From Candidatus Zipacnadum vermilionense (GTDB lineage Bacteria; Armatimonadota; Zipacnadia; Zipacnadales; Zipacnadaceae), in assembly GCA_029821755.1 (NCBI GenBank), contig JALGSV010000002.1, positions 18,591 through 82,590 of the forward strand: a stretch of 64,000 nucleotides of DNA. Direction: 5' to 3'. A program made the position numbers and the translations under genes. Shown piece by piece: positions 1 to 40,074 of the stretch; position 1 is the first letter of the stretch; each line of letters begins with the position of its first letter. The notes beneath the pieces are model-generated. The model was not told where the DNA came from, ran no database searches, and saw only the letters and a list, made by a program, of their open reading frames with translations.

Positions 1-1780
1 GCAGTACATGACTAGCGGTCCGGAGATCGCCGCCTTCACCGTCTCCGCCAGCGGCCGGGACATGGAGTGGCTCGGACCGGACACGGATATCCCCGACACC
101 GCCGACTGGTTCCGCGCCGATGTCAACGGCTTCCGCCTGCGGCTCAAAGTCACCTCCGAGGTAGGCGTGGACCGGGTGCTGCTGTACGACGGCGAGCGCC
201 TGATCCGGCGATGGCTGCCCGGTGGGGAGAAGGTCTTCGAGATCGAGCTAGACCTGACCAACGCGCAGCAGTTCAACTACTGTGTGGAGGCTCACGACCT
301 GCAGGGCGGCATGGCCCTCACACCTGACTTCCACACCCAGCGCAACGATTGGGCCGAGTTCTTCTGCGCCGACCGCAACAACCAGCTCAACGTCGGCTAC
401 GAGAGGGCCGCAGACGGCACCGCCTTCGGCTGGTCCGGCACTATCTATCTGACCTACAACAACGGTAAGTGGGGCGGCTGTACTCCCACCACCGGCCGCT
501 TCTGGTTCCGCGACTCCCTGGCTCCGGTGCCCAACGACCCCGTCTATGACGAGATCGGCCCCTGGGACGGCGGCGTCAACACCCCCGGCGCCGCCTTCAA
601 CTTCAGCCTGGTCATGCCGGACCTCGACCCGCCCGAGTACGTCTTCATGACCACCCCGGGGCGGGAGCTCATCTCCACCGACATCGGCATCGGCCGCATG
701 ATCCTCCAGGACGGCTTCGACCTGTCCTGGCCCAACTTCGCCGGCGAGACTTACGTCGGCTGGAGTATGTTCCCCGTCTGTGAAACCCGCTACGTCCGCG
801 CCGAGCGCCTGGGTATGGTCTTCCGCCCCCGCCCGCGCTCGCTAGCCACGGTCATCTTCCAGTGGGACATCAGCCTCAAGCAGCCGGTCGAGTTCATCGA
901 ACCCCTCCAGGTCGGCTTCCTCGATGCCCTCGCTACCCACGTTCTGCACAAGGCGGACGGCTGCCGCGTGGAGATGGCTGGCGAGGGTGAGGACCCCCTC
1001 GACTTGACCTGGGAGCCCGGCGAGTACCTCATCTCCTGGACCCAGGGCCGCCGCCCGGCGATCTTCTTCAACGACAGCGTCCCCCTGCACCTGCGCCGAG
1101 CCCAGGCGGACTCCAGTGGCCCGCTGACCCTCGGGTGTGAGCCTGGCCAAATTGCCGCCTTCCTGGAGGGCGACTGTCTCCCCGCCCTGGACCATCCGGT
1201 CCGAATCAAGCTCCTCGGCATCGGCGGCGCCCACGATGACCGCGACCCGGAGATCGGCGAGATCGCCCTCCGCCAGATGGGTGTCCTGGGCGACCCCGCC
1301 TATCGCGTCGAGCTGGAATCCGGCGGCCTGCTCAGCACCCGCCTCCTTCTTACACTGGACGCACAAGGAACCGGCGTGGCCTGCCACATTCCGCAGGCCA
1401 ACTTGCTCATGGCAATACCGATCGCCGTGGAGAATCTCAACCCCAACTGGCCCACCGTCCTGGTGGACCGGGCGACCCGCCGCTGGCGCCCGCTGGGGAT
1501 GTTGGGGACCACCGCTTACGCCACCCTCGATACTCTCCCGCAGGACTGGAGCCTCTACCTGGGGCACCCCGTCACCGCTTCCGACCCCCAGGTGGTCCTG
1601 AGCCTGGCGCAGATCTCGCCGGAGGAGTGGGTCCTGGAGGCGCACAACCCGACGGACGAGGCGATGGACCTGAGGGTGCAACAGTCGCCGTACGCCGACC
1701 TGCTCAACTGGGAGGGCGCCGCCTGGAGGTTGGAGCCGGGGATGTCGAGGTTCGAGACGATCAGGGGGAAGGGTGACTGA
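1..1780 (+). CDS. 5'-partial secreted hypothetical protein, paralog of the C-terminal ~600 aa of the 40075..44004 protein
   Basis: ORF 8..1780 is open to the window start. It aligns with the C-terminal part of the 1309-aa protein at 40075..44004 (shared CADRNNQL, LIRRWLPGG/LIRRFLPGG, HNPTD motifs). The true gene probably extends upstream of the window. Confidence 0.6.
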   Translation, partial: QYMTSGPEIAAFTVSASGRDMEWLGPDTDIPDTADWFRADVNGFRLRLKVTSEVGVDRVLLYDGERLIRRWLPGGEKVFEIELDLTNAQQFNYCVEAHDLQGGMALTPDFHTQRNDWAEFFCADRNNQLNVGYERAADGTAFGWSGTIYLTYNNGKWGGCTPTTGRFWFRDSLAPVPNDPVYDEIGPWDGGVNTPGAAFNFSLVMPDLDPPEYVFMTTPGRELISTDIGIGRMILQDGFDLSWPNFAGETYVGWSMFPVCETRYVRAERLGMVFRPRPRSLATVIFQWDISLKQPVEFIEPLQVGFLDALATHVLHKADGCRVEMAGEGEDPLDLTWEPGEYLISWTQGRRPAIFFNDSVPLHLRRAQADSSGPLTLGCEPGQIAAFLEGDCLPALDHPVRIKLLGIGGAHDDRDPEIGEIALRQMGVLGDPAYRVELESGGLLSTRLLLTLDAQGTGVACHIPQANLLMAIPIAVENLNPNWPTVLVDRATRRWRPLGMLGTTAYATLDTLPQDWSLYLGHPVTASDPQVVLSLAQISPEEWVLEAHNPTDEAMDLRVQQSPYADLLNWEGAAWRLEPGMSRFETIRGKGD

Positions 1781-1832
1781 TCCCCACGTGGTCCGCCATG
1801 TACGACGGTCGCTCAGTGAGTGTCCCCTCCGT

Positions 1833-1857
1833 CCCCCTCTCCTGCAAGGAGAGGGGG
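1833..1857. terminator. perfect 10-bp stem hairpin (CCCCCTCTCC-TGCAA-GGAGAGGGGG) between convergent genes
   Basis: Inverted repeat read directly from the sequence. It lies between the stop of the 8..1780 gene and the stop of the minus-strand CHAD gene. No T-tract follows, as expected in a high-GC genome. Confidence 0.5.
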
Positions 1858-1924
1858 CAGGGGGTGAGGCTCCGCGGCTGGCGCGAGCAAGTCGCAGGCA
1901 TCGCGGCACTGGTGCGCGGCGACG

Positions 1925-2833
1925 CTAGTCCAATGCATCCAGTAGCGCGCTTCGCCAGGTCTCCTCGCCCAGGACGCCGATGGATTCGCGCGCGGTGACG
2001 TAGAGGGCCTCGCGGCGCTCCTGCAGGGCGCGGAGCGTCTCGCTGGTGCCCTTGAGCCGCCGGGCTTGCGCGTGGAAAAACTCCCTCAGTGCGGCGTCCA
2101 GCACGTCGCAGTCATGGGCCAGGCCCAGCGTCTCCTGGATCCCCGCCACGCTCTGGTACGGCCCGGCCAGCGCTGGCAGGGCCGAGAGCAAGGGCTCCAG
2201 CGTGTATTTGAGGCGCTTGACGACGATACGCAGGCGGTGCAGGGCAGCGGGATCGGCGGTCGCCTGCGCCTCGGCCAGGCGCTGGCCGGTGCGTTCCAGG
2301 CGGGCGTTGACGGCCAGATAGGCGAAGCGGTCTAGCGGCAGACCGCTCAACCGGCCTTTGTGTTTCCCCGTGTCCCGGGCTAGCCGCCGCAGGCGCGCCA
2401 CCAGCCGGTCCGGCCCGGCCAGCCGCTCCCACAGCTCGACCGTCGCCTCATGCGCCGTCAGCCGCTGCTCCTCCCAGGTCGCCACTGCCACCTCCAGGAC
2501 CGGTGCCGCCCCCGACACGGCCTCTGCCAGCTCCCGCGCATGCCCGATCAGCACGTCCCTGTCGCGCGCCCGCCCCAGACCGTCATTCAGATCCTCTACC
2601 CGCGGTAGTACCCGCCGCCGAGCCTTCACCGGCACCAGCCGCTGGAACAACCGTAGCGTTTCCCGTAGCCGCTTCACCGCTACCCGCAGATCATGCAGCC
2701 CCTCCACCTTCCCCGCGCACGCCGGTTTCACAGACGCCAGCACCTCGTCGGTCTTAGCATCTATCAGCTTACCCGCCGCTTTCCCGGCGCGGGTATTTGG
2801 CGTAAGTCCCTTGGGCAAAATAGGCTTGGGCAT
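1925..2833 (-). CDS. CHAD domain-containing protein
   Basis: Repeated CHAD-type helical motifs (LHDLRVAVKRLRETLRLF, LHRLRIVVKRLKYTLEPL). The ORF-track N-terminal extension (to 3028) is read-through of a palindromic repeat (RGAGFLARP translation). The real start is probably ATG at 2833 (MPKPILPKG). Confidence 0.7.
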   Translation of the reverse strand: MPKPILPKGLTPNTRAGKAAGKLIDAKTDEVLASVKPACAGKVEGLHDLRVAVKRLRETLRLFQRLVPVKARRRVLPRVEDLNDGLGRARDRDVLIGHARELAEAVSGAAPVLEVAVATWEEQRLTAHEATVELWERLAGPDRLVARLRRLARDTGKHKGRLSGLPLDRFAYLAVNARLERTGQRLAEAQATADPAALHRLRIVVKRLKYTLEPLLSALPALAGPYQSVAGIQETLGLAHDCDVLDAALREFFHAQARRLKGTSETLRALQERREALYVTARESIGVLGEETWRSALLDALD

Positions 2834-2856
2834 GGTGGTGTAGGGCAGGATCTCTT

Positions 2857-2934
2857 CCGCGTGGGGCGGGCTTTCTAGCCCGCGTTCCCCGCTGGTGTCC
2901 GTCCCCGGGCGGGCTAGAAAGCCCGCCCCACGCG
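2857..2934. repeat. REP-like palindromic repeat, type A pair (CCGCGTGGGGCGGGCTTTCTAGCCCGC ... GCGGGCTAGAAAGCCCGCCCCACGCG)
   Basis: Two inverted copies of the 26-nt unit separated by 27 nt. The same unit recurs at 31027, 33827 (degenerate), 60941 and 63435/63487. Confidence 0.8.
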
Positions 2935-2940
2935 CACGTG

Positions 2941-4326
2941 TCAGCACGTCACGTGCATAAACAGCGCCTTCGGCCCCTCGGCGGCATTGAAGGCTTCGGC
3001 GGCCTCCGGCGTCGGCAACAACTCCCATCGCACGCCCTGCGCGCGCAGGAAGGCCTCGGCGTCTTCGGTCAGGCGCACCATTTCCTGGAAGCCGGCCCCG
3101 ATGATCAGCAGGCTCGGGCCGCCCTTGATTACCTTCGCCAGTTCCTCCGGTCCCAGCACATGGGAGGTCCCGTAACGCCCGCGCGCCAGCTTCTTCTTCC
3201 GCGCTTTCAGCTTCCCCCCGGCTCGGATGTACAGGTCAGTCGCCAACTCCTTGCCGTTCACCACCGCGGCCCCGAAGCTGACGCTGTCCAGGTGCGGGTA
3301 GGTAGGAGCGGGATCCGCTTCGGCGGGGCAGCCTCCCTCCTCCGTCTGCGTCGGGCGGAATGGCTGCCCGCTGGTCTCGGCGTGGGCCAACGCCGCCGCG
3401 CCCAGGGCCACGGCATCGTCGCCCAGTTCCGAGAGCGCGAGGCGCAGCACATCCCGCGAACGCCGCAGGTGGTCGCCCCGTACCTCGGCCTCGATCAGTG
3501 GCATCAGAAAGTCGCCGCAAGCCTCCATCACACCCCCACCCAGGATGACCATATCCGGGTCCACTATATGCCGCAGGCTCACCACGCCCTGCCCCAGGTA
3601 ATGCCCCACGCGGGTCATAATCTCGGTAGTCAACTCATCGCCCGCGCCCAGGGCCTCCGCCAGCATGCCGCTGCCGACCCGCCCGGTTTCCGCGGCTTCC
3701 CGCAGAGACGACGTACGTCCAGCCGCCAAGCCTTCGCGCAGTTCCCGCTCAATGGCCGTACGACTGGCCAGGGCCTCGAAGCAGCCGGCATTCCCACATC
3801 CGCACCGTGGACCGTCGACGCTCACCACCATGTGCCCGATCTCACCCGCCTGGTCCTCAGACCCCGCCAACAACCGCCCGCCCAACACGACGCCGCCGCC
3901 GACGCCCGTGCCGACGAAGATACCCACCACATTCGCCACGCCCCGCCCAGCCCCCCGCCACACCTCCGCCAGCGTCCCCAGGTTCACATCATTACCCAGG
4001 AAGATCGGCACGGGGAAGCGTTCGGCCAGTTGGTCGCGCAGATGGGCATCGGCGTTAGACAGATTAGGCGCGTGCACCACCAGTCCCGCCCGGCTGTCCA
4101 CCACCGCCGGCACCGCCAGCCCCATGCCCGCCACCTCGCCGACGGTAGTGCCCGCCTTTGCCAGGACCTCACTCACCGCGGCCGCGATCTGGTCGCCCAG
4201 GGAGCCCTCTCGCGCGACCCTGAGCTTCTTGCGCCCCAGTATCTCGCCCTCCGCCGTCGCCACTACGGCCAGAATCTTAGTTCCACCCACGTCAACGCCC
4301 AGGTATAGGGACCGGTCTGCACTCAT
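2941..4326 (-). CDS. ROK-family sugar kinase (glucokinase / possible polyphosphate glucokinase) fused to a C-terminal Mth938-like (DUF498) domain
   Basis: N-terminus has LGVDVGGTKI and the ROK zinc motif CGCGNAGCFE. The C-terminal ~140 aa (SLLIIGAGFQEMVRL...EAAEAFNAAEGPKALFMHVTC) resembles the Mth938-like fold. GAGGTG lies 8 nt upstream of ATG 4326. Confidence 0.75.
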   Translation of the reverse strand: MSADRSLYLGVDVGGTKILAVVATAEGEILGRKKLRVAREGSLGDQIAAAVSEVLAKAGTTVGEVAGMGLAVPAVVDSRAGLVVHAPNLSNADAHLRDQLAERFPVPIFLGNDVNLGTLAEVWRGAGRGVANVVGIFVGTGVGGGVVLGGRLLAGSEDQAGEIGHMVVSVDGPRCGCGNAGCFEALASRTAIERELREGLAAGRTSSLREAAETGRVGSGMLAEALGAGDELTTEIMTRVGHYLGQGVVSLRHIVDPDMVILGGGVMEACGDFLMPLIEAEVRGDHLRRSRDVLRLALSELGDDAVALGAAALAHAETSGQPFRPTQTEEGGCPAEADPAPTYPHLDSVSFGAAVVNGKELATDLYIRAGGKLKARKKKLARGRYGTSHVLGPEELAKVIKGGPSLLIIGAGFQEMVRLTEDAEAFLRAQGVRWELLPTPEAAEAFNAAEGPKALFMHVTC

Positions 4327-4390
4327 CTGCTGCACCTCAAGTGCCGCCGGATCGGAAGGATTGCTGGCCTCTAGCGGCTAATGTAACGAC

Positions 4391-4954
4391 ATGGGAGACG
4401 ACACCGGCTTCGGGGCGATTCTGGGCCTGCTGGACCCCTCGGCGCCCCCCGAGGCTCACCGGGCGCTGCGCGAGGCCTACCTGTGGGCGCGAGAACTGTA
4501 CGGTGACCAACGGCGCCAGGACAGTTACTCCGTTCTCACTCACGCCTGCTCCGTCGCTGCGGACGTATCCCGCTTTGGGCACCGGGACCCGGAGATGCTG
4601 GCGAGTGCCCTCCTCCACGACGTTCTGGAGGTCACCCACGCCTCTCCCACCGAGATCGAGCGCCGTTTCGGCCCCCGCGTGCTGCGCCTGGTCGAAGCCC
4701 TCACCCATGGGCCCGGCGAGCCCACCGCGGTCTCAGCCCAACGCGCACTCGAAGCCGGCGAGGACGCCGTACTACTGCGCCTCTGTGATCGGCTCGACGG
4801 CCTCCGCCGTAGCCGCCTCCGCTCTCCCCTCTCCCGCTCCCGCTTCCTTGCCGCTACCCACGAAACTTACATCCCCCTGGCGGAGCAGCACTTCCCCGCC
4901 CTCGCCACCACGATGCGCCAAGCGCTCCGCGAAGTAGAGCAGACGCTGGAGTAG
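4391..4954 (+). CDS. HD-domain phosphohydrolase, RelA/SpoT hydrolase-like (small alarmone hydrolase-like)
   Basis: Motif ELYGDQRRQDSYSVLTHACSVA...LLHDVLEVT...EIERRFGPRVLRLVEALT resembles the (p)ppGpp hydrolase HD domain. Confidence 0.55.
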   Translation: MGDDTGFGAILGLLDPSAPPEAHRALREAYLWARELYGDQRRQDSYSVLTHACSVAADVSRFGHRDPEMLASALLHDVLEVTHASPTEIERRFGPRVLRLVEALTHGPGEPTAVSAQRALEAGEDAVLLRLCDRLDGLRRSRLRSPLSRSRFLAATHETYIPLAEQHFPALATTMRQALREVEQTLE

Positions 4955-5082
4955 AGCCACGTGCCTCCGATCACATGGCGGCCTACGCTACAGACACTCC
5001 CTTTCCCTATCCGGTTTCCTCTTGACCCCCCTCCCTATCAAGCGCGCGGAAGGTACGCAAGGGGGGCAGGGGAGGAGTCGCC

Positions 5083-5904
5083 TCAGCCATCCTCCAGCAG
5101 CGACGAGAAGAACTCCCGCAGCCTCTCCGTCGCCCCGCGCTTCTCCTCCTTCGGCTCCTCCGGAGTCTCCAGGATCCGCTCGGCGAACTCCGTGGTGATG
5201 ACTTGCCCCGGTATCATCCCCTGCACCACAGACTGGACGTGGCTCTGCAGATCGATGAATACCTCCCGGACGGTCCGGTTGGCGTCGACCACGGTGAAGT
5301 TGTACTCGTCCACCATGGTCTCGAACTCGCGCAACAGGCGTGCCTGGTAGGTCACGAAGCCCTCGTACATGTCGTCCAGACACAGGAAGTCCATCCCGGA
5401 TTCCCAGTAGTCAAATCCCCCACTGGCCAGGACGCGGGGAAGAAGCTTGTCCAGCGAGATCTTCAGGTACAGCACCAAGTCGGGCTTCAGGGCGAAGCCG
5501 TATAGCCGCCGCAGCCACGGCGCCTCCACGCCCCGCACCGCCGCTCGCGCTATCAGTGAGTAGGTGTAGCGGTCGGTCAGCACCACATACCCCGCGCGCA
5601 GGGCCGGGAAGATCTCGTTCTCCAGGCGGTTAGCGAAGTCGGTGGCGTAGAACAGGCACTGGGTGCGCCGCCCCATGGTGTGCCCGAGCTTCGCTTGCTG
5701 GATGTGCCGCCCGGCCAGGTTGCTCCGAGTCAGGCCCGTGTCGTAGACGGCCAGGCCGGAGCTCTCCAGCCAGTTGCGCAGTATCCGTGTCTGCGTGCTG
5801 CGACCCACCCCGTCGGTGCCCTCCAGGACGATCAGCTTGCCGGGTAGTTCCTCCTCGAGACCGGTCATGCCGGGGAGGGGAACCCAGTAGAACTCAGGGA
5901 TCAT
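5083..5904 (-). CDS. thymidylate kinase-like P-loop kinase (paralog 1)
   Basis: Walker A LIVLEGTDGVGRSTQ and a DRY(T)YS motif typical of dTMP kinases. 273 aa, longer than canonical Tmk. GGAGGTGA lies 8 nt upstream of ATG 5904. Confidence 0.6.
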   Translation of the reverse strand: MIPEFYWVPLPGMTGLEEELPGKLIVLEGTDGVGRSTQTRILRNWLESSGLAVYDTGLTRSNLAGRHIQQAKLGHTMGRRTQCLFYATDFANRLENEIFPALRAGYVVLTDRYTYSLIARAAVRGVEAPWLRRLYGFALKPDLVLYLKISLDKLLPRVLASGGFDYWESGMDFLCLDDMYEGFVTYQARLLREFETMVDEYNFTVVDANRTVREVFIDLQSHVQSVVQGMIPGQVITTEFAERILETPEEPKEEKRGATERLREFFSSLLEDG

Positions 5905-6714
5905 CTAACCCTCACCTCCCATCGGGAAGGCCGGTGCCCTGGCATCTGCCGGCTGGCGCAACAACCCTTCCAGGTGCGGCTTGACGATGTCGCGCATCTG
6001 CCGCTGCTGCTCGCCGATGGGCAGTGTGCCGTCGATGATGGTGAGGTCGAACTCCGTCGCCGCCTGGTCATACTGCTCCAGGATCCTCCCTTGAAACAGC
6101 GCGAAGCTCTCCTCCGGATCATCCGACAACCCCAGGTCCATCCCCGCCTCGTACCACTTCAACTCCGGCCGGCCCGAGAGAATGCGGTCTAGGGCCACCT
6201 CCAGCGGGACCCGGAAGTAGAACCCAACCGTAGGGCGCACGGCGAAGGAGTACACCTCCCGCACCCAAGCCGGGTCGCAACCGCGCGCCACGTCCCGTGC
6301 GAAGGCGGTGTAAACGTAGCGGTCCGCCAGCACCGCCGCCCCTGCCCGCAGTGGCGGCACGATGTTGCGCTCGGTCCGGTCCGCGAAGTCGGTGGCGTGG
6401 ATCAGGGAGAAGGTGAGAGGAGTGAGTAGCCGGCGCGATTTGCCACGCCGCGTGGTCCGCTTGACCAGCGGGGAGGAATTCCACTCCGAGAAAAATGTGC
6501 TGTAGCCTTGCGAAAGCAGCCACTTGTACAGCAGACTGATCTGTGTGCTCTTGCCCGACCCGTCAATACCCTCCACCACGAAGAGCCGACCGCGATAGTG
6601 CTCACTGGGTTGTGCCATCCCGACACCGCCGTTCTCGTAGTATAGGCTGTGACCTGTTGTAGGGCGGGGGCCGCCTCCCTCCCCGGTGGGGGCAGCATTA
6701 TAGTAGCCGCCCAT
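5905..6714 (-). CDS. thymidylate kinase-like P-loop kinase (paralog 2); alternative start ATG 6618
   Basis: Walker A LFVVEGIDGSGKSTQ and a DRYVYT motif. Its stop abuts the start of paralog 1 (0-nt gap). The long form carries a Gly-rich N-terminal extension. Confidence 0.6.
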   Translation of the reverse strand: MGGYYNAAPTGEGGGPRPTTGHSLYYENGGVGMAQPSEHYRGRLFVVEGIDGSGKSTQISLLYKWLLSQGYSTFFSEWNSSPLVKRTTRRGKSRRLLTPLTFSLIHATDFADRTERNIVPPLRAGAAVLADRYVYTAFARDVARGCDPAWVREVYSFAVRPTVGFYFRVPLEVALDRILSGRPELKWYEAGMDLGLSDDPEESFALFQGRILEQYDQAATEFDLTIIDGTLPIGEQQRQMRDIVKPHLEGLLRQPADARAPAFPMGGEG

Positions 6715-6758
6715 GACGATAGCAAGGCCTTCCTGCCCCGCCTGGAGAACATGCGCTC

Positions 6759-7706
6759 GTGAGACGCCCTTGTCCTGTCCCAGATCACTCTCCCGGCGCG
6801 CGCTACGTTGCTTTCGACGTGGGCAGCAATACCGTCCGCGCCCTTGCCGCCGCCTGGCAGCCTGGCGGCACCCTCCTGGTCACTCAGCAGGCCGGCCGCA
6901 TGACTGCGCTAGGGCGGGGGCTGTCGGCCACGCGGCGTTTACAGAAGGACACGATAGCCGACACCGCGGAGTTCGTCCGGGACTTTCTGGCCCAGGCCGG
7001 GCCTTTCCAGGAGGTTTTCTGCGCCGGGACGGCGGCGACCAGGGAGGCGCAAACCACCGGCGCGCTGGCGGCGGCCCTGCGCCGGCAGGGGGCGAAGCTG
7101 CAGGTGCTGACCGGCGAGGAGGAGGCGCGCCTGTCCTACCTGGGGGCACTCGCAGTTCTCGAGCTACCGACCGCCGTCCGGCCCCTGGTTGCCGACCTAG
7201 GCGGGCGCAGTATCGAACTGGCCCTGCGCCGGGGCAATCGCCTGCTAGGCCTCAGCTTGCCGCTTGGCGCTCGGGCCCTGACGGAGGCGTGCCTGCTCCA
7301 GGAAATCCCCTCCCGCTCCGAGATCGCCGCCGCACGTCGCGACGCCCATGCCGCCCTGGCCGCAGCCAACCGCCTCCTCGAGCAGGCAGGCCTGGTAGTT
7401 GCTACCGGCGGCACCGCCTTCGCCGCGGCTTTGCTGACCGGCCCGTGCTGGAGGCTTAGCGCCGATGCCCTCCAGCGGCTCCGCCGGCGGTTGTGCCGCC
7501 TCCCGCTCCCGGAGCGGCGTGAGGCAATGTCATTCGATCCGGAGCGCGCCGAGATTATCTGCGGGGGATTGATCGCGCTGGAGGTGCTGGCCGAGCGGGC
7601 GCCGGGCCGCCGCCTGACCCTCAGCCCCGGAGGCCTGCGAGAAGGTCTACTACTCGATCGCACCGGCGCACGGAGGGTGGCGTTCGCGGAGGGGATGCGA
7701 ATCTAA
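6759..7706 (+). CDS. Ppx/GppA family phosphatase (exopolyphosphatase / pppGpp phosphohydrolase)
   Basis: N-terminal YVAFDVGSNTVRAL and the overall Ppx/GppA actin-like fold pattern. GTG start in the ORF track. Confidence 0.7.
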   Translation: MRRPCPVPDHSPGARYVAFDVGSNTVRALAAAWQPGGTLLVTQQAGRMTALGRGLSATRRLQKDTIADTAEFVRDFLAQAGPFQEVFCAGTAATREAQTTGALAAALRRQGAKLQVLTGEEEARLSYLGALAVLELPTAVRPLVADLGGRSIELALRRGNRLLGLSLPLGARALTEACLLQEIPSRSEIAAARRDAHAALAAANRLLEQAGLVVATGGTAFAAALLTGPCWRLSADALQRLRRRLCRLPLPERREAMSFDPERAEIICGGLIALEVLAERAPGRRLTLSPGGLREGLLLDRTGARRVAFAEGMRI

Positions 7707-7719
7707 GCCCGGCGAGTCT

Positions 7720-9726
7720 TCAGAACACCGTCGCCAGCCCCACCAACTCCAGGCTGATCCGCCCGGTCTGTCGCGACCAAGACAGCCCCACCTCCCGGTC
7801 CTGGTAGACCTTCCGCCCTACGAAGAGCGACTGGTCCGAGTAGGACGACTCGTTCTGCCGATACCAGTTGCCCATCAACTCCACGCGCCACAGGGACGAC
7901 AGGTAGTAGTCCCAGGTCACCAGGCTGTACCAGTCTGAACTATCCAAATAGTCCTCCACGGTGCCGTACACCATCCATTTCCGGCCGTGGTAGGCTCGTA
8001 GTTCCGTCGAGATAACCTGCTGCCACCCCCCCCCCGCCATATTTCCGCTCAGGTGACTGGCGCTGTACCGCAGGTTCAGGTCCAGCGCCTCGCCGAACGA
8101 CCGTTTCAGTCGCACTTCCCCGCGCAGGTTGTTCCCGTGGAAGGGTGAGGTGTCCCAGGTGAAAACGTTGCTCAGGGAGGGAGTCAGGCGGGTGTTCCGG
8201 TCGAGCCGGATCGGCCGCCAGTCCATCGACCCGTACAGCTCCTGCACAAACTGCGGGTTGGTATTATTCAGGCCCGCACCTCTCTGCACCCCCGCCGACA
8301 CCCCTATCCGGTAGTACGGGCTCTGCACGGTCTTGCCAAACGGGCGCGGATCACTCAACCACTCCCCCACCGCTCCCCACGAGCTACCCAGGCCAGTCGG
8401 TTTCTGGTAGAAGCTGCGTAGGTTGACGCTGTACCCCGGACGGGAGTCGTACACCGACCCGTCATAGTACAAGCTCCTGTGGTCCGGCGAGGCCACGTTG
8501 AAGAAGGCGTTCGCTCCTCCCCAGATCGTCCGGCTGTCCCGCCACTGCGCCCCCCACTCGGACCTCGGCAGCCCGGACAGCGAAAGCACCCCGCTGGTCT
8601 GGCCTACCCGGTACTCATGTTGCAGCCCCAAACCCCACTCATCCGAGCCCATGATGCTGGTCGCCGGCGCCCCCTTCTGTAGGGCGACGGAGCTAGTCGT
8701 GTTCTCGCCGGCACTCAGGAAGTACGGGTAGTTGACCGCCAGGCCGCCACTGGAGCTAATCCCTAAGACCTGCGTGTTGGAGGCCCCCGTGTAGCCGGGA
8801 AGGGCGAAGATCCAGATCCGCGGCAGCGACATCAGCTTCTTCTCTTCGGTGTACAGCCCTCCCTCGCGGAATACCATCTTCTCGTTGCTGAAGACAGTGA
8901 CACGCTTGGCGATAATCCAGGTGGCGCTGGCGTCATCCTCCCGCTGGAAGGCGTCCTCAGGGATCTCCCAGTCCATGGCTCGCGCCTCGAGGGTGGCCAG
9001 ATCGAAGGTGACGCGTTCCACTCCCTCGCCACCCAAACGCCGCAGCACTCCTCGCTGGCGCTGCAGGTCCAGATAGAAATCCACCCCCTCCAACTCCACC
9101 TTGCCATCGGTCAGCACCCCCGGCCCGCCTCGCAGGATCATCTCTGCCACGTTCAGTTGCAGCAGATCGGCGCCTTCCAGCCGGATGCCGCCCATTCGCG
9201 CCCAGGCCTGGTCCCGCGTCTCTACCACCCCCTGGTCCACCGCGTACCCCGTCCAGCCTCCGCCCAGGTGCACGATATGCGTGTCGGCGAGGGAGGTCTC
9301 TCCGGGCCGGAGGAACACCACCGCGCCCTGTAGCCGAGAGTTCAAGGCGGTAACCGTGATGATGGCGGTGCCCGGCGCGTCGCTGACCAGGAAGGCGTTC
9401 ACTACGCCCCCGCGCGAGACCAGGTTGATAGTGGCCTCCCGATCGGCTCCGGTCGTAGTAAAGTAGCCGAAGTCAGTGTGCAAGACCACCGCCAGACCAT
9501 CGACGACGTAGCTGCCGTCGTCATTGCGCAGGTCCACGCGCAAGCGGGCGCGCGTCTTGCCGTCGGACGGCACGCGGTTCGGGGTAGCGCTCATGGAGAG
9601 GAAGACGCGGCCCATCAGGGCGCTCTGCGCACGGACCGGAAGAGGAACCGCCGCGCCGCCGGCACACAGCAGTAATCCGGCGGCGAGGCGCAGTAGGAGG
9701 ATTCCCGGCTTACGGATAGGGTTCAT
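7720..9726 (-). CDS. outer-membrane beta-barrel protein with N-terminal Ig-like domain, possibly LptD/OstA-like
   Basis: Signal peptide. N-terminal Big-1-like Ig segment. Long Gly/Ser/Tyr-rich beta-strand region ending in a terminal Phe (LELVGLATVF), the outer-membrane-protein signature. Confidence 0.4.
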   Translation of the reverse strand: MNPIRKPGILLLRLAAGLLLCAGGAAVPLPVRAQSALMGRVFLSMSATPNRVPSDGKTRARLRVDLRNDDGSYVVDGLAVVLHTDFGYFTTTGADREATINLVSRGGVVNAFLVSDAPGTAIITVTALNSRLQGAVVFLRPGETSLADTHIVHLGGGWTGYAVDQGVVETRDQAWARMGGIRLEGADLLQLNVAEMILRGGPGVLTDGKVELEGVDFYLDLQRQRGVLRRLGGEGVERVTFDLATLEARAMDWEIPEDAFQREDDASATWIIAKRVTVFSNEKMVFREGGLYTEEKKLMSLPRIWIFALPGYTGASNTQVLGISSSGGLAVNYPYFLSAGENTTSSVALQKGAPATSIMGSDEWGLGLQHEYRVGQTSGVLSLSGLPRSEWGAQWRDSRTIWGGANAFFNVASPDHRSLYYDGSVYDSRPGYSVNLRSFYQKPTGLGSSWGAVGEWLSDPRPFGKTVQSPYYRIGVSAGVQRGAGLNNTNPQFVQELYGSMDWRPIRLDRNTRLTPSLSNVFTWDTSPFHGNNLRGEVRLKRSFGEALDLNLRYSASHLSGNMAGGGWQQVISTELRAYHGRKWMVYGTVEDYLDSSDWYSLVTWDYYLSSLWRVELMGNWYRQNESSYSDQSLFVGRKVYQDREVGLSWSRQTGRISLELVGLATVF

Positions 9727-11193: not shown

Positions 11194-14064
11194 TTACCGC
11201 GTCACCTCGAAGCTGGTGACCAAGCTGTTGGCCTGGCCGCTCTCCGGAGAGCGCGCAGTGATCTGGCACAGGTAGCGCCCGGACGGCACCCGGGTCCCGC
11301 TATCGCTCCGGGCGTTCCATAGTACGGTGTTGACCCCTGCGGTCCCCACCTGCCCGATGCTCACGCGGCGGATGACCACGCCGGCGATGTTACGGATCAC
11401 GACGTCCACACTCGCCGACGACGCCAGCGCATAAGTGAGAGCGAGTTGCCCCCCCGGCGCGGCCTGCGCTTGGACGCTCGTAAGCAAAGCGGCCGCCGAT
11501 CCCCGCGGCTGCGCCACTATCTTGAACAGCCGGCTTCCCTCTTCCATCATCTGGAAGGAATACGCCGCCGTTGTGCGCATGTAGCACCGCGTGCCACTGG
11601 CCACATCCTCCAGGATCAGCGTGTACTTCTCCGGCACCGCCGACAGGTCCGGCCAGGCCACGGCCAGATTGCGCTGGGCGCCGGCGGAGGTAACCTGCAG
11701 GTACCAGGTCTTCTCATTGCCGTCGTCGGCCTTAAGGTCCACCATGCGCTGCTCTCCGCCGCCTCCGGCGGAGACGAAGGCCGCCTGCAGACCCGTGCCG
11801 AAGGGCGAGGGCGGTGCGAGCAGATCCCGAGCATCCGCCCCATCCTTGGCCTCGCGTGCCACCCCGAAGGCCCGCACCATCGTCGCCGCACCTCCACCGC
11901 TGACGGTGATCCCCGCCCGCCAGCCGTTGGCCGCTGGGCTCACCTGGGCTATCGGAGCCGCGCTTACGCCCACCGCACTGGGCGGCGGCACCAGCAACTC
12001 GGTATCGTCATACGCCAAGATCCAGTAGCCCACGAACGGGTCCAGCCGTACCTTGGCTAACTGCTCCTCCCACCCATACTGCCTCGTCATCGGGTCGTAA
12101 TCAAACACCGTAGGCTGCAGCAGCGCCCGGCCGATCGCCTCCGCCATGGTCAACTGCCCACTGTCGGAGCTGATCACCTGCATGTCCCGCAGGTAAACTG
12201 GCAGGATGAACGGGTTCCCGATCTGATTCCAGCCCTTGGTCAGCGAGATGCTGACCGACGTGAGGCTCGGCACCGGCTGGGCGTCCGCCGGCAGCACGAT
12301 CTGCTGCTGCGCCCGGTTTAGTAGCCAGTACCCCTTCCCCACCGCCACGTTGGTCACAAAGGGGTTGGGGAACCAGCGATAGATGAGCGACAGCGGGTCC
12401 CAGCGAATCAGCGCTCCGAGTTGTCCCGGCTGCAACCCGCCCAGGCTCTGGAAAACGTGTTCCGCGTCGCTGTTGGTGAACTCGTAGGGGATGGAGATCA
12501 TCTCCAGCCCGTCGGGTGAAGGCCGCGGATTGATCACTGGGACCGAGGGTATGGTGATGGTCCGGTCCACCGCGCGCCCCCGGGGTCCGGTCAAACCCAC
12601 CGTCACTACTCCCGGCCGCGCCCCGCTGGCGCTGACATTCCAGACTGCCCCCACGAACCCGTCCCGCGGGATCGCCCCGAAGGCCTGGGTTTGCGGCTGC
12701 GTATCCGGTGACAGGGTCAACCCCTCCGGCAGCCTGATGCTCGCGCTGGTCCCCGCCAGGGCGGATGCGCCGAAGTTGTCCACGAAAATCCCCATCGGGA
12801 AGGGCGAGCGCCCCTGCCCGTCGGCCAGGTAGCAGCTCTCGACGATGTCCGGAGTCGAGGGATCGTCTCCGGCGGCTTCCTGCAGGCGCTGCGGGCCGTA
12901 GCCCATCGTCGCGAAAGTCGGCTCGTAGTTGGCCGTCGAGGCCCCAAAGGCAAGGTATGTCACGTACCGTCGCGAAGCGCCCGCCGGAAGGTTGAGCTCA
13001 TTCCACTTGACTCCCACACCCCAGTCCTGCCCCACGATAGACAGCGCCGGGTTCGGGACGAAGTCGAAGTTCGCACCCGCCAGACGCGCCCACATCCCAA
13101 TCTCCACTGCATCCGGCACCCCCGCCGAGGACCCGGCCGTGTTCCGCTGGCGTACCTCCGGCGCATCGAGTACACCTTTTACCGAGATCAGCGGGTTAGT
13201 GGGATCGTCGTACGCCACCCAACCGGTCGGCATCACCCCGGCGCCCCCCGACAGCACGCGCTCGTTGCGGATAGTCGTCCCGTCCGGCAGTATGACCGAC
13301 GTCCCGTCGCGTACGCCGGCCCCGCCGAAGCCGGTGTCGAACCCCCAGCGCACCCCTACACTATGTGGCTCGGCGGTGGTGTTGGTCACGATAAGCTCGA
13401 GCATCAGCGCGTCGCCCACCAGCTCGTAATTGTGGTAGACAGTCAACGAGTCGTCTATCGGGACTTGAAGCGGCACCACCGGCGGCTCCACCGGCGGCTC
13501 CACCGGCGGCTCCAGCGGGTCGTCTATGTCACCTGTGTCGTCTCCGCCTTGATCGGTAAGCGGCACAAGCGAAGTTCCCCTCGCTGCGCGGGTGGTGGCG
13601 GTCAGCGGCACCGGCCAGTAGCTGGGCAGCGTACCGGGATCGGCGGCCGTCTCTGCCTCGTTCATGGCCGCGTACGTATCGAACAGTAGCGCCTCGCCAT
13701 CTTCTACCGTAGCATCCACGGAGAACTGCAAGAAGGAGGTGAAGCCGGTAAAGTCGTTCGTATCGTTGAACGCCTTGCTGGCGATAGCCACGTCCTCATC
13801 GCCGGTCCGAGTGGGGTCGCCCCCCCGGGGGGCGAGCCGTCCCGTCAGCAATTGGAACCGGCCCGCCGGCCGAACCCAGAAGTCAGTCCCCACGGACACC
13901 ACTTGCGGTGCGCCGATCTGCATCCGCATTAGTCCGCCGGGCTGGGAGATGTCCAGCATCGACTGGGCCGCGGCCGGGCCCGACAGCGCCACTGCCGCGA
14001 AAGTGCAGACCAGGGCCATCACACCTGCGATGAGCATCTTCTTCGATATAAGGCTACAGTGCAC
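11194..14064 (-). CDS. giant secreted protein (956 aa) with shared C-terminal modules and FlgD-Ig/T9SS-like C-terminal domain
   Basis: Signal peptide, Pro-rich linker (PVEPPVEPPV). A C-terminal ~450-aa region is shared with the 14098 and 20934 gene products, including module A (SIPYEF...RW.P..Y..P...GYWL) and the CTD ...RNIAGVVIRRV...WNARSDSGTRVPSGRYLCQITAR. Confidence 0.6.
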   Translation of the reverse strand: MHCSLISKKMLIAGVMALVCTFAAVALSGPAAAQSMLDISQPGGLMRMQIGAPQVVSVGTDFWVRPAGRFQLLTGRLAPRGGDPTRTGDEDVAIASKAFNDTNDFTGFTSFLQFSVDATVEDGEALLFDTYAAMNEAETAADPGTLPSYWPVPLTATTRAARGTSLVPLTDQGGDDTGDIDDPLEPPVEPPVEPPVVPLQVPIDDSLTVYHNYELVGDALMLELIVTNTTAEPHSVGVRWGFDTGFGGAGVRDGTSVILPDGTTIRNERVLSGGAGVMPTGWVAYDDPTNPLISVKGVLDAPEVRQRNTAGSSAGVPDAVEIGMWARLAGANFDFVPNPALSIVGQDWGVGVKWNELNLPAGASRRYVTYLAFGASTANYEPTFATMGYGPQRLQEAAGDDPSTPDIVESCYLADGQGRSPFPMGIFVDNFGASALAGTSASIRLPEGLTLSPDTQPQTQAFGAIPRDGFVGAVWNVSASGARPGVVTVGLTGPRGRAVDRTITIPSVPVINPRPSPDGLEMISIPYEFTNSDAEHVFQSLGGLQPGQLGALIRWDPLSLIYRWFPNPFVTNVAVGKGYWLLNRAQQQIVLPADAQPVPSLTSVSISLTKGWNQIGNPFILPVYLRDMQVISSDSGQLTMAEAIGRALLQPTVFDYDPMTRQYGWEEQLAKVRLDPFVGYWILAYDDTELLVPPPSAVGVSAAPIAQVSPAANGWRAGITVSGGGAATMVRAFGVAREAKDGADARDLLAPPSPFGTGLQAAFVSAGGGGEQRMVDLKADDGNEKTWYLQVTSAGAQRNLAVAWPDLSAVPEKYTLILEDVASGTRCYMRTTAAYSFQMMEEGSRLFKIVAQPRGSAAALLTSVQAQAAPGGQLALTYALASSASVDVVIRNIAGVVIRRVSIGQVGTAGVNTVLWNARSDSGTRVPSGRYLCQITARSPESGQANSLVTSFEVTR

Positions 14065-14097
14065 TGATCGCTCTCTCCTCTCGCCGGCTTCCCTGGA

Positions 14098-17000
14098 TTA
14101 GGGGAATACCTCGAAGGGCCGGATGGCTTGCACCGTCTGGCCCTTGTCCGTCCGGGCCGTCAGGCGCACCACGTAGCGCCCTGCCGGCACCTTGCTGCCG
14201 CGATCGCTGCGGCCGTTCCACACCAGCAACTCCACCGCTCCCCCCGCCGTGAGCTGGGGGCTGAACTGCTTGATGAGCAACCCCGAGATGTTGCGGATCT
14301 CCGCTGTCACCTCGGCAGGCTGCGACAGCGCGTAGGTAAAGGCCACGCCGCCGCCCGTTATCCCTTGCGCGCTGACCCCGCTCAGGCTCAACCCGCCCAC
14401 CGCTTCCGTCGAGGCGATGATCCGTACCCGCCGCGTGCTGCCCTGCGGCCCCGAGTTGAAGCTATAGCCCGCCGAGGTCCGCATGTAGATCTCCTCACCG
14501 GTGTCCAGATCCTCCAGCAGGAGGGTGACCCCGGCGGGGACGGTGGCGTTCAGCTCCGGCCAACGCAAGGACACCTCGGAGTTGGGCTGGGCGCAGGCGA
14601 TCTCCATATCCCATTCCTGCCGCCCCGAAGCGGGTCTAACTATCTGCGCGTAGTACGCCGACTCGTCGCCCCAGTCCCTCTCCACCAGCGCTGCACGCAG
14701 GCTGCTATCCACCGCCGGCGGCTTCCCCACAGCCCAGAAGGGGCTGTACGCGGCCGTCGCCTTGGTGTTCATGCCGATGTAGTTGCATGGTTCGACTACG
14801 CCGTTGGCGGTCGCCACCAGTTGTAGCCGCCATCCCTCGCCACCCTCGGTCGGCCGCGGCGTCGCCGTCTGCGTGGCGATCACCGGCGCGTAGATCACCA
14901 GCGTCGTATCCTTGCGCACCCGCAGCCAGTAGCCCTGGAACGGCTCCAACATCGCCGAGAAAGGATCTGCCGAGAATGTATAGTAGCCGCCCGAGGCGGT
15001 GCTGCGGAACCCGAAGAGAACGCCGTCGGTCACCCCGGAACTGATCGCTTCGGCCAGGGTCTCTCGCTTGCCGGCGGTCACGAACTGCACGCTGCCGAAA
15101 TCGACCGGAGTAAGGAAGGGACAGCCGATCATGTTCCAGCCCCGCGGCTCGCGGCTTCCCATGAGTAAGTTGATGTCGTACTGCGTCAGCCCCGCGACCG
15201 GAGCCCCGGTGATGTTGAGAGTCGTCGCCCGCGGCAGGCGCACAAAATAACCTATTCCCGCCGGCGGTTGGGGCACAACCTGTGCTGGCCCCGATGCGTC
15301 CGGCGGGTCGAAGGTCGCGTAGGGGTCGGGGTACAGGTGATACTGAGTGTCCCCCGGCCACCAGCGCGCCAGCCGGACCTCCTCGCTGGATAGCCCGAAC
15401 ACCTGGCTGGGGTCAGGGAAGCTGCCCGGCGCGTAGGTGTAGGGCAGCGAGAACAAGTGGATGCCCGCGTCCATCCTGGGCAGGGCCACCCGGAAATTGG
15501 ACAGCGCGGTCACCGACCGGTTGCCGTCCTGGTCCGCCACCGAAAGTGTGAGCTGATGGCTGGCCAGGGTTAGCGACGTCGTTACCTGGAAGGTGAGCAC
15601 GCCGCTAGTCGCGTCGAAACTGTAACCGGTGAGCTGCCGGCCATCGATCGCCAGCAGAATGCTGGCGGGGTCGATCCCGGTGCCGGTGTCGATGAGGGAG
15701 GCGCGGATCAGCGGCGTCCGGGTGTTGATGGTCGTGCTGTTCTGCGGGAAGATAATGGTCACCGTCGGCAGATCAGTGTCCCGTCCCGCCTGCAAAGTCA
15801 AGCGACCCTCCCCATAGGTGTTGCTGGGCGGAGAGGTGTCGGTTGGCAGCGGCTTGGCCAGCATCAGTATAATACGCCGCAGGTCCGCCCCAGTCCGACT
15901 AGGGTTCTCTGAGTACAGCAGGGCCGCGGCTCCGGCGACATGCGCCGCACTAGCGGACGTGGACAGGAAGGGGGTATAGGCGGCCAGACTGGTCGTCACC
16001 CGGTCCGGCCCCACCATATTCGGCTTGCGCGAGCCACCCACGGTCGGCCCCTGGCCGCTATAGAGCTCAATGTCGTCTATCCCCGGTGCCGGCGGCACCC
16101 CCGCCGTACCCGCGGTTGCCCCCACCGTCAGGGCCCGGGACGACATGGCGGGGATTGGCAGGCTGGTGGCGGCTACCGCCACGCTGACCGGCAGGTTCGC
16201 CGCCGGCGTATACAACTGGAACTTGTCCGGTTGCATCAGATCCGCCCGCACCGCCTTGATCCGTAACTCATGGACTCCCGCCGTGATGACCTGTGCGATC
16301 AGCGTTTCCCGCGGGGGTGTGGCGCCGTTCTGGGACACGCCCGAATCCGCGATCAGGGTCGTGCCCTGCCACAATTGCAGGTTGTAATCCTGCGAGGTAA
16401 CCGCTCCGGCGGTTTCATACCATGATAGAAAGGCCGTAAACTCGCCCGCCGGCAGGTCGAGGCTGACACCGGTATTGGTCTCGATGTCGCAGAAGGTGTC
16501 GCTGTTCACGTCAACAAAGGTTCCCTGCCAGTGGCGCTGGGCCAGGTCTCCCGAAGCCTGCACCCATAGCACCCCGCTGTCGCTCGCCGTGGCCACTGCC
16601 TGCGAGATCATGTCACTACCGTCGAAGGGCCCGTCGACCGTCCCCACGGTGTTGACGACAGCGGTATACCGGTTCGTAGCTACGTAGTTGATCGCCTGCC
16701 GCAGGGAGAGCGCGGTGTCGACCGCGATGAGGATGAAGTTAGCCTGCGGAGCCATGTCCGCGGCCACCTCCGCGGCGGCCGTCCCCAAGGCATCGGTGCC
16801 CATGGTGCCGTCCGCGCGGAAGGACACTTGGGCGGGCGTAGGGATCTCTGCGTCGACAGCTCCGGCAAACCCCTCCGCGATGATGCCGATATTGGCGCCA
16901 GCCCCCGCGATGCCGAGGGACTGGTATGAGGAGGCGTTCGTTAGCTGTACGCCTTCACTCACGTTGGCCCCGAAGCCAAAGATCGCCTGCTGCGGCCGCA

Positions 17001-17424: not shown

Positions 17425-17508
17425 GGCCGCCTTCGGGCGGTCCCTTGCTTCGTATTCTGCTGCTACACGTACTTGCTCCGCCCCCGATCCGTCCCAACCC
17501 CGAGTTCC

Positions 17509-18699: not shown

Positions 18700-18783
18700 T
18701 GCTGCTGCTCGCTTATCAACCGGCCCTCCCGATCTCGACTTACCGGTCGGAACTCTCCCGGCGCCAACCTGTGCCCGCCACCG

Positions 18784-20670: not shown

Positions 20671-20933
20671 TGCCTTGGATCTCCCTCCCGGCGGGACCGT
20701 TGCAGAATCTCGGCGCTTTCGCGCCTGCGCTCGGGACCGGGCTTATGCCCGGACCCCGGCGCTTCCCCCGTTGCCGGAGGAAAACGTGAACGTGCGTCCT
20801 CTCCACGGGCCCAGGCGCTTCTCTCCACCCCCGGCTGCCAGCCCTGCCCCGTGGACCCCTCCACACAACGCTCGTCAGTATAACACAGCCCTCGGGGCGG
20901 CTGCAACGACTCCTTCGGCGCGGCGCGCCCTGT

Positions 20934-39866: not shown

Positions 39867-40074
39867 CGACACCGGCCTCCCTTACAGTATGCAAGCAGGC
39901 AGATTGCTCCCGGGGACGCCTAAGCAGATACCACAGCCCGCCGGGGATGTCAACGGACGAGGCCTAGAGAATGGCTCCTCCCGCGTGGAGGGGAGGTATG
40001 CCCCAGCCGGAGGCGGAACAAATGTCTTGACCTCTCCTATAGCTAGACTGACCTCTCTCTCTCGGAGGCCCACC

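Follow-up and report, generated by a model that had tools for sequence, protein, structure and literature searches.

In Sulfolobus acidocaldarius, two adjacent genes formerly annotated as thymidylate (dTMP) kinases encode Saci_2019 (cPPK3) and Saci_2020 (rPPK3), which together form a heteromeric polyphosphate kinase, SaPPK3 (Hofmann et al. J Biol Chem 2026, PMC12995831; preprint 10.1101/2024.08.28.610084). Saci_2019 is the catalytic subunit and has polyphosphate kinase (PPK) activity, whereas Saci_2020 is inactive by itself and activates Saci_2019 when present 1:1, the two forming an alpha2beta2 complex. The reaction is reversible, ATP formation from polyphosphate (polyP) and ADP being approximately 50-fold faster, and some activity with GDP was also reported. 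Neither Saci_2019 nor Saci_2020 has dTMP kinase activity, which resides in a third paralogue, Saci_0893, encoded elsewhere in the genome (PMC12995831). Here we describe a locus at positions 1925-7706 of a 64,000-nucleotide stretch of DNA from the bacterium Candidatus Zipacnadum vermilionense (Armatimonadota; assembly GCA_029821755.1, contig JALGSV010000002.1, positions 18,591 to 82,590), hereafter referred to as the window, all positions being those of this stretch. Two adjacent genes of the same superfamily lie there beside polyP-related genes, and the locus very probably encodes a bacterial family-3 polyphosphate kinase (PPK3) with its polyP partner genes.

Regarding the wider family, the operon saci_2017-2021 of S. 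acidocaldarius has the order sixA-ppx-cPPK3-rPPK3-CHAD, and PPK3 neighbourhoods in general contain polyP genes such as those for exopolyphosphatase (PPX), CHAD, SixA and Pst proteins, from which the bacterial members have been predicted (PMC12995831). Genomes with PPK3 are expected to have a separate canonical dTMP kinase and, as a general trend, to be devoid of PPK1 and PPK2, and PPK3 is nested in the dTMP kinase superfamily in a manner for which a single-origin scenario was put forward (PMC12995831). The dTMP-binding residues are described as not conserved and polyP as being taken by a basic cleft that is conserved in cPPK3 and not in rPPK3, and the main text ascribes the inactivity of rPPK3 to replacement of the DRX arginine (PMC12995831). 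The bacterial homologues were described as "few" in the preprint (10.1101/2024.08.28.610084) and are still confined to a few scattered bacteria in the final version (PMC12995831). The present locus is a new bacterial member of a published family (preprint 2024, final version 2026) and not a new system.

The adjacent Tmk-like proteins and their relation to SaPPK3

The two Tmk-like genes and the elements around them are arranged as follows.

5905-6618, (-): cPPK3-type catalytic subunit (predicted), 237 amino acids (aa); open reading frame (ORF) 5905-6714 with its start revised to 6618; annotated elsewhere as dTMP kinase
5083-5904, (-): rPPK3-type regulatory, degenerate subunit (predicted), 273 aa; Thymidylate_kin domain
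5905-5920, (-): junction of the two genes, read from the sequence, with a Shine-Dalgarno sequence GGGAGGTGA at 5920-5912, the stop codon TAG at 5907-5905 and the start codon ATG at 5904-5902
6697-6725, (-): promoter-like site TTGCTA-17-TATAAT upstream of the catalytic gene, in the divergent intergenic region that is common to ppx

Revised gene starts, here and below, were taken from the lengths of homologues; since the cPPK3-type homologues are of 237 aa, the start was placed at M33 of the long ORF (6618, not 6714). The promoter-like site, identified by consensus match alone, agrees with the consensus at 10 of 12 positions and is the sole such site within 1700-7900, where shuffled sequences would be expected to give 0.4; its location at 6725-6697 is compatible with the shorter model of the catalytic gene. 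No intrinsic-terminator-like site was found within 1700-7900. The stop codon of the catalytic gene abuts the start codon of the regulatory gene exactly, as a first-pass annotation of the window had noticed, and GGGAGGTGA lies 7 nucleotides (nt) upstream, within the end of the catalytic gene. This is the arrangement expected for translational coupling.

Among solved structures, the best match of the catalytic protein was 2plr/5h70 (E = 5e-56, against 4e-12 for the best canonical thymidylate kinase, TMK), and the same entries were matched by the regulatory protein (E = 3e-38). The structures 2plr, 4nzy, 4rzx and 5h70 are all of STK_15430 of Sulfolobus (now Sulfurisphaera) tokodaii, which is titled "probable thymidylate kinase" and is a cPPK3 homologue, the orthologue of Saci_2019 (PMC12995831). 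Both window proteins match STK_15430 far above any other structure, genuine TMKs scoring approximately 1e-12 to 1e-14. A Sulfolobales metagenome operon (locus L086) has the structure of saci_2017-2021, with His_Phos_1/SixA, PPX, cPPK3, rPPK3 and CHAD; its cPPK3 is 46% identical to the catalytic protein of the window, for which a crystal structure at 46% identity exists, and its rPPK3 gave 102 bits to 5083-5904 and 80 bits to 5905-6618, with 35% identity to the regulatory protein.

A neighbour-joining tree was constructed from 85 catalytic and 83 regulatory sequences (85 loci plus the window and L086) by using BLOSUM distances, with a fragment of Thermus thermophilus TMK as the root. The two classes had been split by first-round phmmer scores; iterated hidden Markov models of the two subunits were also tried as classifiers and rejected, as both profiles gathered both subunit types and labelled all of them as catalytic. 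In the tree, the catalytic and the regulatory sets were each monophyletic, with the window and Sulfolobales proteins falling into matching clades, which is consistent with the single-origin scenario (PMC12995831). At the level of sequence, the window pair is orthologous to cPPK3 and rPPK3.

The catalytic protein contains a complete active site and the set of basic surface motifs, as judged from its residues: the Walker A motif GSGKST, DRY, the lid residues R145, R150 and K154, and the EWNSS motif are all there. In the family, all 84 catalytic subunits whose Walker A could be recognised have GK[ST], 83 of 85 have DR[YF], and the column of the DRX arginine is invariant (85/85). At least 82 of the 85 sequences, from bacteria and archaea alike, keep each of the following: EWNSS, H74, the lid and the basic cleft. 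The lid positions R150 and K154 (window numbering) are basic, and together with K53, R58 and R62 they make up the positions that are basic solely in catalytic subunits; all five occur in the window protein, which has all of the features named here except for one basic position (S61). At the positions where T. thermophilus TMK has the Phe that stacks on thymine and the Arg that contacts the phosphate of dTMP, the catalytic protein has His74 and Phe78, in agreement with the published non-conservation of dTMP-binding residues (PMC12995831).

As a separate observation, a long Armatimonadota contig (L003, 7297-8011) has its cPPK3 split into two ORFs of 68 and 144 aa next to an intact regulatory gene, which points to a frameshift pseudogene or else to an error in the long-read assembly.

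The regulatory protein is 34% identical to the catalytic one, and its Walker A motif reads GVGRST, in which Arg replaces the P-loop Lys. This Arg was present in 83 of 83 regulatory subunits examined, including that of the Sulfolobales operon (GSGRT), and in 118 of the 120 closest homologues; among representatives of 50%-identity clusters with recognisable P-loop motifs, 75 have Arg and three have Cys. The basic lid positions are gone as well, with a gap in the column of R150 and Asp in that of K154. On the other hand, DRY is kept in the window protein and in 81 of the 83 regulatory subunits, whereas the Sulfolobales protein has DGY. Since the DRX change is confined to the Sulfolobales protein while DRY is kept in nearly all others, the Walker A Lys-to-Arg change is the family-wide mark of the regulatory subunit. 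It provides a simple rule for separating regulatory from catalytic subunits, and across the family it serves better as a marker than does the DRX change given in the main text of the PPK3 paper. The regulatory P-loop is otherwise strictly conserved, with its glycines and Thr in addition to the universal Arg, which is compatible with the possibility that a ligand may still be bound. Thus, the tandem of two Tmk-like kinases in the first-pass annotation stands as a tandem pair but not as two kinases: both proteins belong to a single enzyme, in which one subunit is catalytic and the other is degenerate and probably regulatory.

The regulatory protein of the window also has, at its C-terminus, an acidic stretch some 40 residues long (residues ~232-273, …ETPEEPKEEKRGATERLREFFSSLLEDG), which is a feature of Armatimonadota regulatory subunits; judging by ORF lengths, those of other phyla are mostly shorter (~700-860 nt) and seem to be without such a tail.

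Distribution of the pair and its gene neighbourhood

When one genome of each GTDB species was scanned, a relative of cPPK3 was encoded in at least 527 candidate stretches, and the neighbourhood counts given below refer to the best 80 of these loci. They come from more than 12 phyla, with 35 loci from Acidobacteriota, 13 from Chloroflexota and 8 from Nitrososphaerota archaea, and the remainder including Planctomycetota, Verrucomicrobiota, Armatimonadota, Binatota, Thermodesulfobacteriota, Eisenbacteria, Bacteroidota, Actinomycetota and Nitrospirota. Both subunits were encoded in 79 of the 80 loci, the exception being a truncated contig, and the regulatory gene directly followed the catalytic gene in 75. 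Within 5 kb, PPX accompanied the pair in 51 loci and CHAD did so in 40; because many contigs are short, the true numbers may be higher than these. Of 150 further ORFs from the neighbourhoods that were surveyed with Pfam, there were 13 His_Phos_1/SixA-like, 4 PstS-like (PBP_like_2), 3 PPK2, 3 Metallophos and 2 PhoU proteins. Taken together with PPX and CHAD, this is the same neighbourhood as that described for PPK3 (PMC12995831). In addition, natural single-chain fusions of the two subunits (P0021, P0032, P0034, P0136 and P0157; 427-469 aa, metagenomic) have the catalytic part (GSGKST) at the N-terminus and the regulatory part (GVGRST) at the C-terminus, which supports a physical 1:1 partnership of the subunits.

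Within the Armatimonadota, the exact six-gene layout of the window recurs in one relative (L089), whose regulatory subunit is 85% identical. A more distant locus (L090) has PPX divergent from catalytic, regulatory, ROK/DUF498 and CHAD genes; two others (L092 and L003) have the same four genes together with a PPX C-terminal HD domain; in L091 and L001 a TetR gene accompanies the pair and CHAD; and L004 has the pair alone. The synteny of CHAD, ROK, HD, two Tmk and Ppx genes, whose recurrence in relatives the first-pass annotation had put forward as a check, is limited, as a full order, to this single close relative. The conserved core is the catalytic and regulatory pair, with or without PPX and CHAD.

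In three Planctomycetota loci (L014, L018 and L032), a different order was observed, in which the regulatory gene is followed by a CHAD/PPX fusion gene and then by the catalytic gene; the fusion protein of 856 aa has CHAD, Ppx-GppA and Ppx-GppA_III domains in one chain.

These relatives show that the pair is widespread, although its experimental definition comes from one archaeon. As most of them are annotated as "dTMP kinase", a correction of this label would alter what is inferred on polyP metabolism for many uncultured bacteria of soil and sediment.

The other genes of the window locus are as follows.

6759-7706, (+): short two-domain PPX of the Ppx/GppA family, divergent from the catalytic gene; Pfam Ppx-GppA
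1925-2833, (-): CHAD protein, 302 aa; ORF 1925-3028, most likely starting at 2833; end of the ROK-CHAD unit
2941-4326, (-): ROK kinase with C-terminal DUF498/Mth938, 461 aa; ORF 2941-4335 with its start revised to 4326
4391-4954, (+): HD_4 protein, stand-alone and degenerate SpoT/Rel-type, 187 aa; Pfam HD_4

All six ORFs within 1925-7706 are real, and every domain scored above its Pfam gathering threshold (CHAD 113 bits, ROK 217, C-terminal DUF498 41, HD_4 62, Thymidylate_kin 72 and 66, and Ppx-GppA 113); NCBIfam concurred at the family level, with all six proteins below equivalog cutoffs. The first-pass annotation had named the six genes and their domains correctly, having overlooked the DUF498 domain of the ROK protein and the Walker A Lys-to-Arg change. 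Long antisense ORFs, for instance 2938-4308(+), were set aside as high-GC artefacts, as the strong domain matches lie on the opposite strand. Regarding the CHAD gene, its homologues are of 303 aa, close to the 302 aa obtained from start 2833.

The PPX protein was well above the Pfam cutoff of 27 bits, and its top NCBIfam match was the exopolyphosphatase model TIGR03706 at 152 bits, below the cutoff of 307. Its best structural matches were the two-domain PPX/GppA structures of Aquifex aeolicus (2j4r and 1t6c), to which it aligned from end to end. In the phosphate-2 loop of the ASKHA fold, it has DLGGRSIE in place of DxGGGSxE, the latter being present in 48 of 49 PPX genes with a recognisable loop from other PPK3 loci; the Gly-to-Arg change is common only to the window protein and the Armatimonadota relative L007. 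CHAD proteins are a family associated with polyP granules. The window member exceeded the Pfam cutoff of 25.6 bits and covered positions 3-228 of the 228-position profile, and in Armatimonadota relatives the CHAD gene comes after the pair or after the ROK gene.

As for the ROK protein, its nearest structures were the ATP glucokinases 2qm1, 3vov and 3vgk, with the tail matching the Mth938 fold (2cyj and 1ihn), and its best NCBIfam match was ROK_glcA_fam, below cutoff. The 13 NCBIfam matches included no polyP-glucokinase model, nor was such a structure among the structure matches listed; in particular 1woq, the structure of Arthrobacter PPGMK, was not one of these 35. By its sequence, then, the protein is not a known polyP glucokinase, a type that the first-pass annotation had mentioned among ROK kinases, and its link to polyP is a hypothesis. 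ROK-DUF498 fusions form a large family, mainly in Armatimonadota with some in Planctomycetota. They adjoin PPK3 in L089, L090, L092 and L003, stand alone in L093, and lie 46 kb from the pair and CHAD on the same contig in L095. A literature search for Mth938/DUF498 in connection with ROK or polyP gave nothing relevant. Three Verrucomicrobiota loci have the order catalytic, regulatory, ROK and short PPX, where the ROK protein is plain and 36-40% identical; thus ROK joined polyP loci in two phyla. The ROK-DUF498 protein appears to be a lineage-specific addition that may, more speculatively, couple sugar phosphorylation to the polyP pool, and the recurrence of the link offers a lead for such a connection.

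In L094 (4610-7371), a ROK-DUF498 gene overlaps the gene for a CHAD protein of 464 aa although PPK3 is absent from the vicinity, and this is a second, independent link of the kinase to polyP-granule proteins.

In the rest of the window there are genes for secreted FlgD_ig proteins, glycoside hydrolases and peptidases, an export operon of the ABC-2/HlyD type, and a number of large ORFs that matched no Pfam domain, and no tRNAs or Rfam families were found in the whole window. At 11194-25892(-), there are very large predicted secreted proteins of 956, 1108 and 1652 aa, each having a FlgD_ig-like C-terminal domain; one of the FlgD_ig proteins has a subtilase domain, and a gene for a clostripain-family C11 peptidase lies between. 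A similar FlgD_ig protein adjoins the PPK3 locus of L089. The large predicted ORFs without a Pfam match at E<=1e-4 are 39688-44004(+), 48518-52102(+), 18784-20670(-) and 8-1780(+), of 1438, 1194, 628 and 590 aa, respectively.

Predicted function and alternative explanations

By its orthology to SaPPK3, the pair would act as follows. In the catalytic subunit, ATP or ADP would occupy the normal P-loop site, and polyP would be accommodated in the basic cleft where dTMP kinases bind dTMP. The regulatory subunit, as a catalytically degenerate paralogue, would form a hetero-oligomer with the catalytic one (alpha2beta2 in SaPPK3) and activate it. The complex would then transfer the terminal phosphate reversibly between ATP and polyP, such that ATP is regenerated from polyP at a low ATP/ADP ratio and polyP is built at a high ratio. 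The divergently encoded short PPX would hydrolyse or trim polyP, and the CHAD protein, as expected from what is established for its family, would sit on the polyP granule. The proposal in the first-pass annotation of a polyP-linked nucleotide-phosphorylation module, whose Tmk-like proteins use non-canonical substrates, is borne out to this extent by the orthology to SaPPK3 and by PPX and CHAD being usual neighbours.

Several points weigh against this assignment. Identity to the Sulfolobales enzyme is only 46% and 35% for the catalytic and regulatory subunits, respectively. The tree was built simply from distances and carries no support values, so that the evidence from the regulatory grouping is moderate. 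The regulatory subunit retains the DRX arginine and may thus be not fully inactive, or be inactivated differently. Among the larger ORFs of the 64-kb window, the part of the genome covered here, there is no PPK1, PPK2 or third Tmk. In three genomes, PPK2 (PF03976) is encoded close to the pair (neighbours within ~1.3 kb, L006-L085), indicating that PPK3 is not always the sole PPK, counter to the general trend in the paper (PMC12995831). Finally, our literature search turned up no assayed bacterial PPK3, SaPPK3 alone being characterised, and because of this the functional assignment rests on orthology and context.

A more far-reaching reading joins two proposals, namely that the regulatory subunit of bacteria and Nitrososphaerota is a ligand-binding sensor, and that the ROK-Mth938 protein of Armatimonadota acts on sugars as a kinase tied to polyP granules, possibly with polyP as the donor. 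The first proposal draws on the strict conservation of the regulatory P-loop and on the retained DRY arginine. We consider the two together unlikely. If they were true, the sensor would bind ATP, ADP or polyP but not turn them over, and would control in which direction the enzyme runs, ROK-Mth938 with CHAD and PPK3 would tie the polyP pool directly to sugar phosphorylation, and Mth938/DUF498 would gain its first prokaryotic functional context.

Turning back to a PPK3 that makes and consumes ATP, the alternative that survives best is that the pair is a polyP-dependent nucleotide kinase for another acceptor (AMP, GDP, or dNMP/dNDP), similar to class II/III PPK2 and serving mainly nucleotide salvage rather than the synthesis of polyP, an explanation not far from the one in the first-pass annotation. 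SaPPK3 itself strongly favours polyP consumption and has some activity with GDP (PMC12995831), and the window proteins are considerably diverged from this assayed enzyme, with the regulatory subunit differing at DRX. The near-invariance of EWNSS, H74, the lid and the basic cleft in catalytic subunits, however, argues for the same substrates, and a context of PPX, CHAD, SixA and PstS is that of a polyP kinase, so that we regard this explanation as quite improbable. Likewise, the use of NMP or dNMP that the first-pass annotation had in mind is at odds with the characterised SaPPK3, for which ADP serves as acceptor and polyP as the second substrate or product.

It is still less probable, indeed very improbable, that a true dTMP kinase has been duplicated here, in line with the annotation and with what was first reported for the S. 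tokodaii structure. The Thymidylate_kin matches are above threshold, the source annotations read dTMP kinase, and the scores against TIGR00041, 81.9 and 69.5 bits, are just under the equivalog cutoff of 83.25. Both proteins are nevertheless below that cutoff, their orthologues Saci_2019 and Saci_2020 are without dTMP kinase activity while Saci_0893 has it (PMC12995831), the Phe and Arg that contact dTMP are replaced by His and Phe, one copy has the Walker A Lys-to-Arg change, and the genes stand beside PPX and CHAD rather than replication genes.

The HD_4 protein bears on the last alternative. Rel/Mesh1 hydrolases have metal-binding His and HD residues and an HDxxED catalytic pair. The best structural match of the window protein was the hydrolase domain of T. 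thermophilus Rel (6s2t, 5e-15), but its motif is HDVLEV instead of HDxxED, and the HN of Rel is replaced by DG; all three orthologues, those of the window, L089 and L095, share HDxxE[VA], with DG or QS at the HN position. A homology search of the 85 PPK3 loci gave no HD_4 match, for which reason HD_4 was dropped as part of a conserved module, and in loci that were Pfam-annotated later it occurred beside the pair solely in the closest relative (L089). At all three sites where it was found, the gene is divergent from ROK-DUF498 (window 4391-4954(+), L089 7841-8473(-) and L095 5381-5896(-)), even in L095 at a distance of 46 kb from PPK3. HD_4 is probably a passenger or companion of the ROK gene rather than a partner of PPK3, and its subfamily is, judging from the motifs, probably not a canonical (p)ppGpp hydrolase. 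An alarmone module, in which HD_4 and Ppx/GppA would degrade (p)ppGpp and pppGpp while the Tmk-like proteins phosphorylate guanine nucleotides, is hardly credible: HD_4 does resemble the Rel/SpoT hydrolase domain and the Ppx/GppA family does include pppGpp phosphatases, but HD_4 lacks both the Asp in the ED pair and the Asn in HN and follows ROK and not PPK3, and the top NCBIfam model of the PPX is an exopolyphosphatase and not GppA. The (p)ppGpp link drawn in the first-pass annotation has no support. A defence-system reading was also rejected, as PADLOC returned a weak, generic Tmk-fold match to PDC-M51B (6e-11 and 1e-4) for the pair and none for the other four proteins.

Comparison with known enzymes

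Compared with canonical Tmk (TIGR00041), the pair shares the Pfam family and the fold, and the catalytic subunit also the P-loop, DRY and the lid. It differs by scores under the equivalog cutoff, weak matches to solved TMKs, replaced dTMP contacts, and an organisation as a heteromeric pair in a polyP context.

The ROK protein resembles PPGK/PPGMK of Actinobacteria and cyanobacteria in its ROK fold, in the DxGGT, catalytic Asp and CxCGxxGC zinc motifs that can be read in the translation, and in adjoining the polyP genes for CHAD and PPK3, whereas it is nearest to ATP-dependent glucokinases and carries a C-terminal DUF498/Mth938 domain.

The two-domain class II PPK2 (PA3455/PPK2C of P. aeruginosa) is likewise a P-loop kinase of polyP composed of active and inactive homologous modules, the latter of which aids oligomerisation, an analogy drawn in the PPK3 paper (PMC12995831), and the natural fusions of the catalytic and regulatory subunits mimic this two-module architecture. 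PPK2 nevertheless belongs to another family, with no PF03976 match in the window pair, and the ADP and polyP sites of PPK3 are swapped relative to those of PPK2 (PMC12995831).

The closest system is SaPPK3. The window locus differs from it in that the host is a bacterium of the Armatimonadota; the regulatory subunit keeps DRY and shares just the Walker A Lys-to-Arg change and the loss of lid basic residues with the Sulfolobales protein (DGY); there is no SixA gene; the PPX is short, two-domain and divergently transcribed; and the pair is separated from CHAD by inserted genes for ROK-DUF498 and HD_4. The two have in common a pair of adjacent dTMP kinase-superfamily paralogues in the order catalytic then regulatory, PPX and CHAD at the locus, intact catalytic motifs and the basic cleft in the catalytic subunit, a regulatory subunit with a non-canonical P-loop and a degraded lid, and positions in the same clades. 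In comparison with the main text of the PPK3 paper, the present analysis adds the bacterial breadth of the family, the Walker A Lys-to-Arg rule for the regulatory subunit along with retention of DRY outside the Sulfolobales, and the recurrent link to ROK and ROK-Mth938 proteins.

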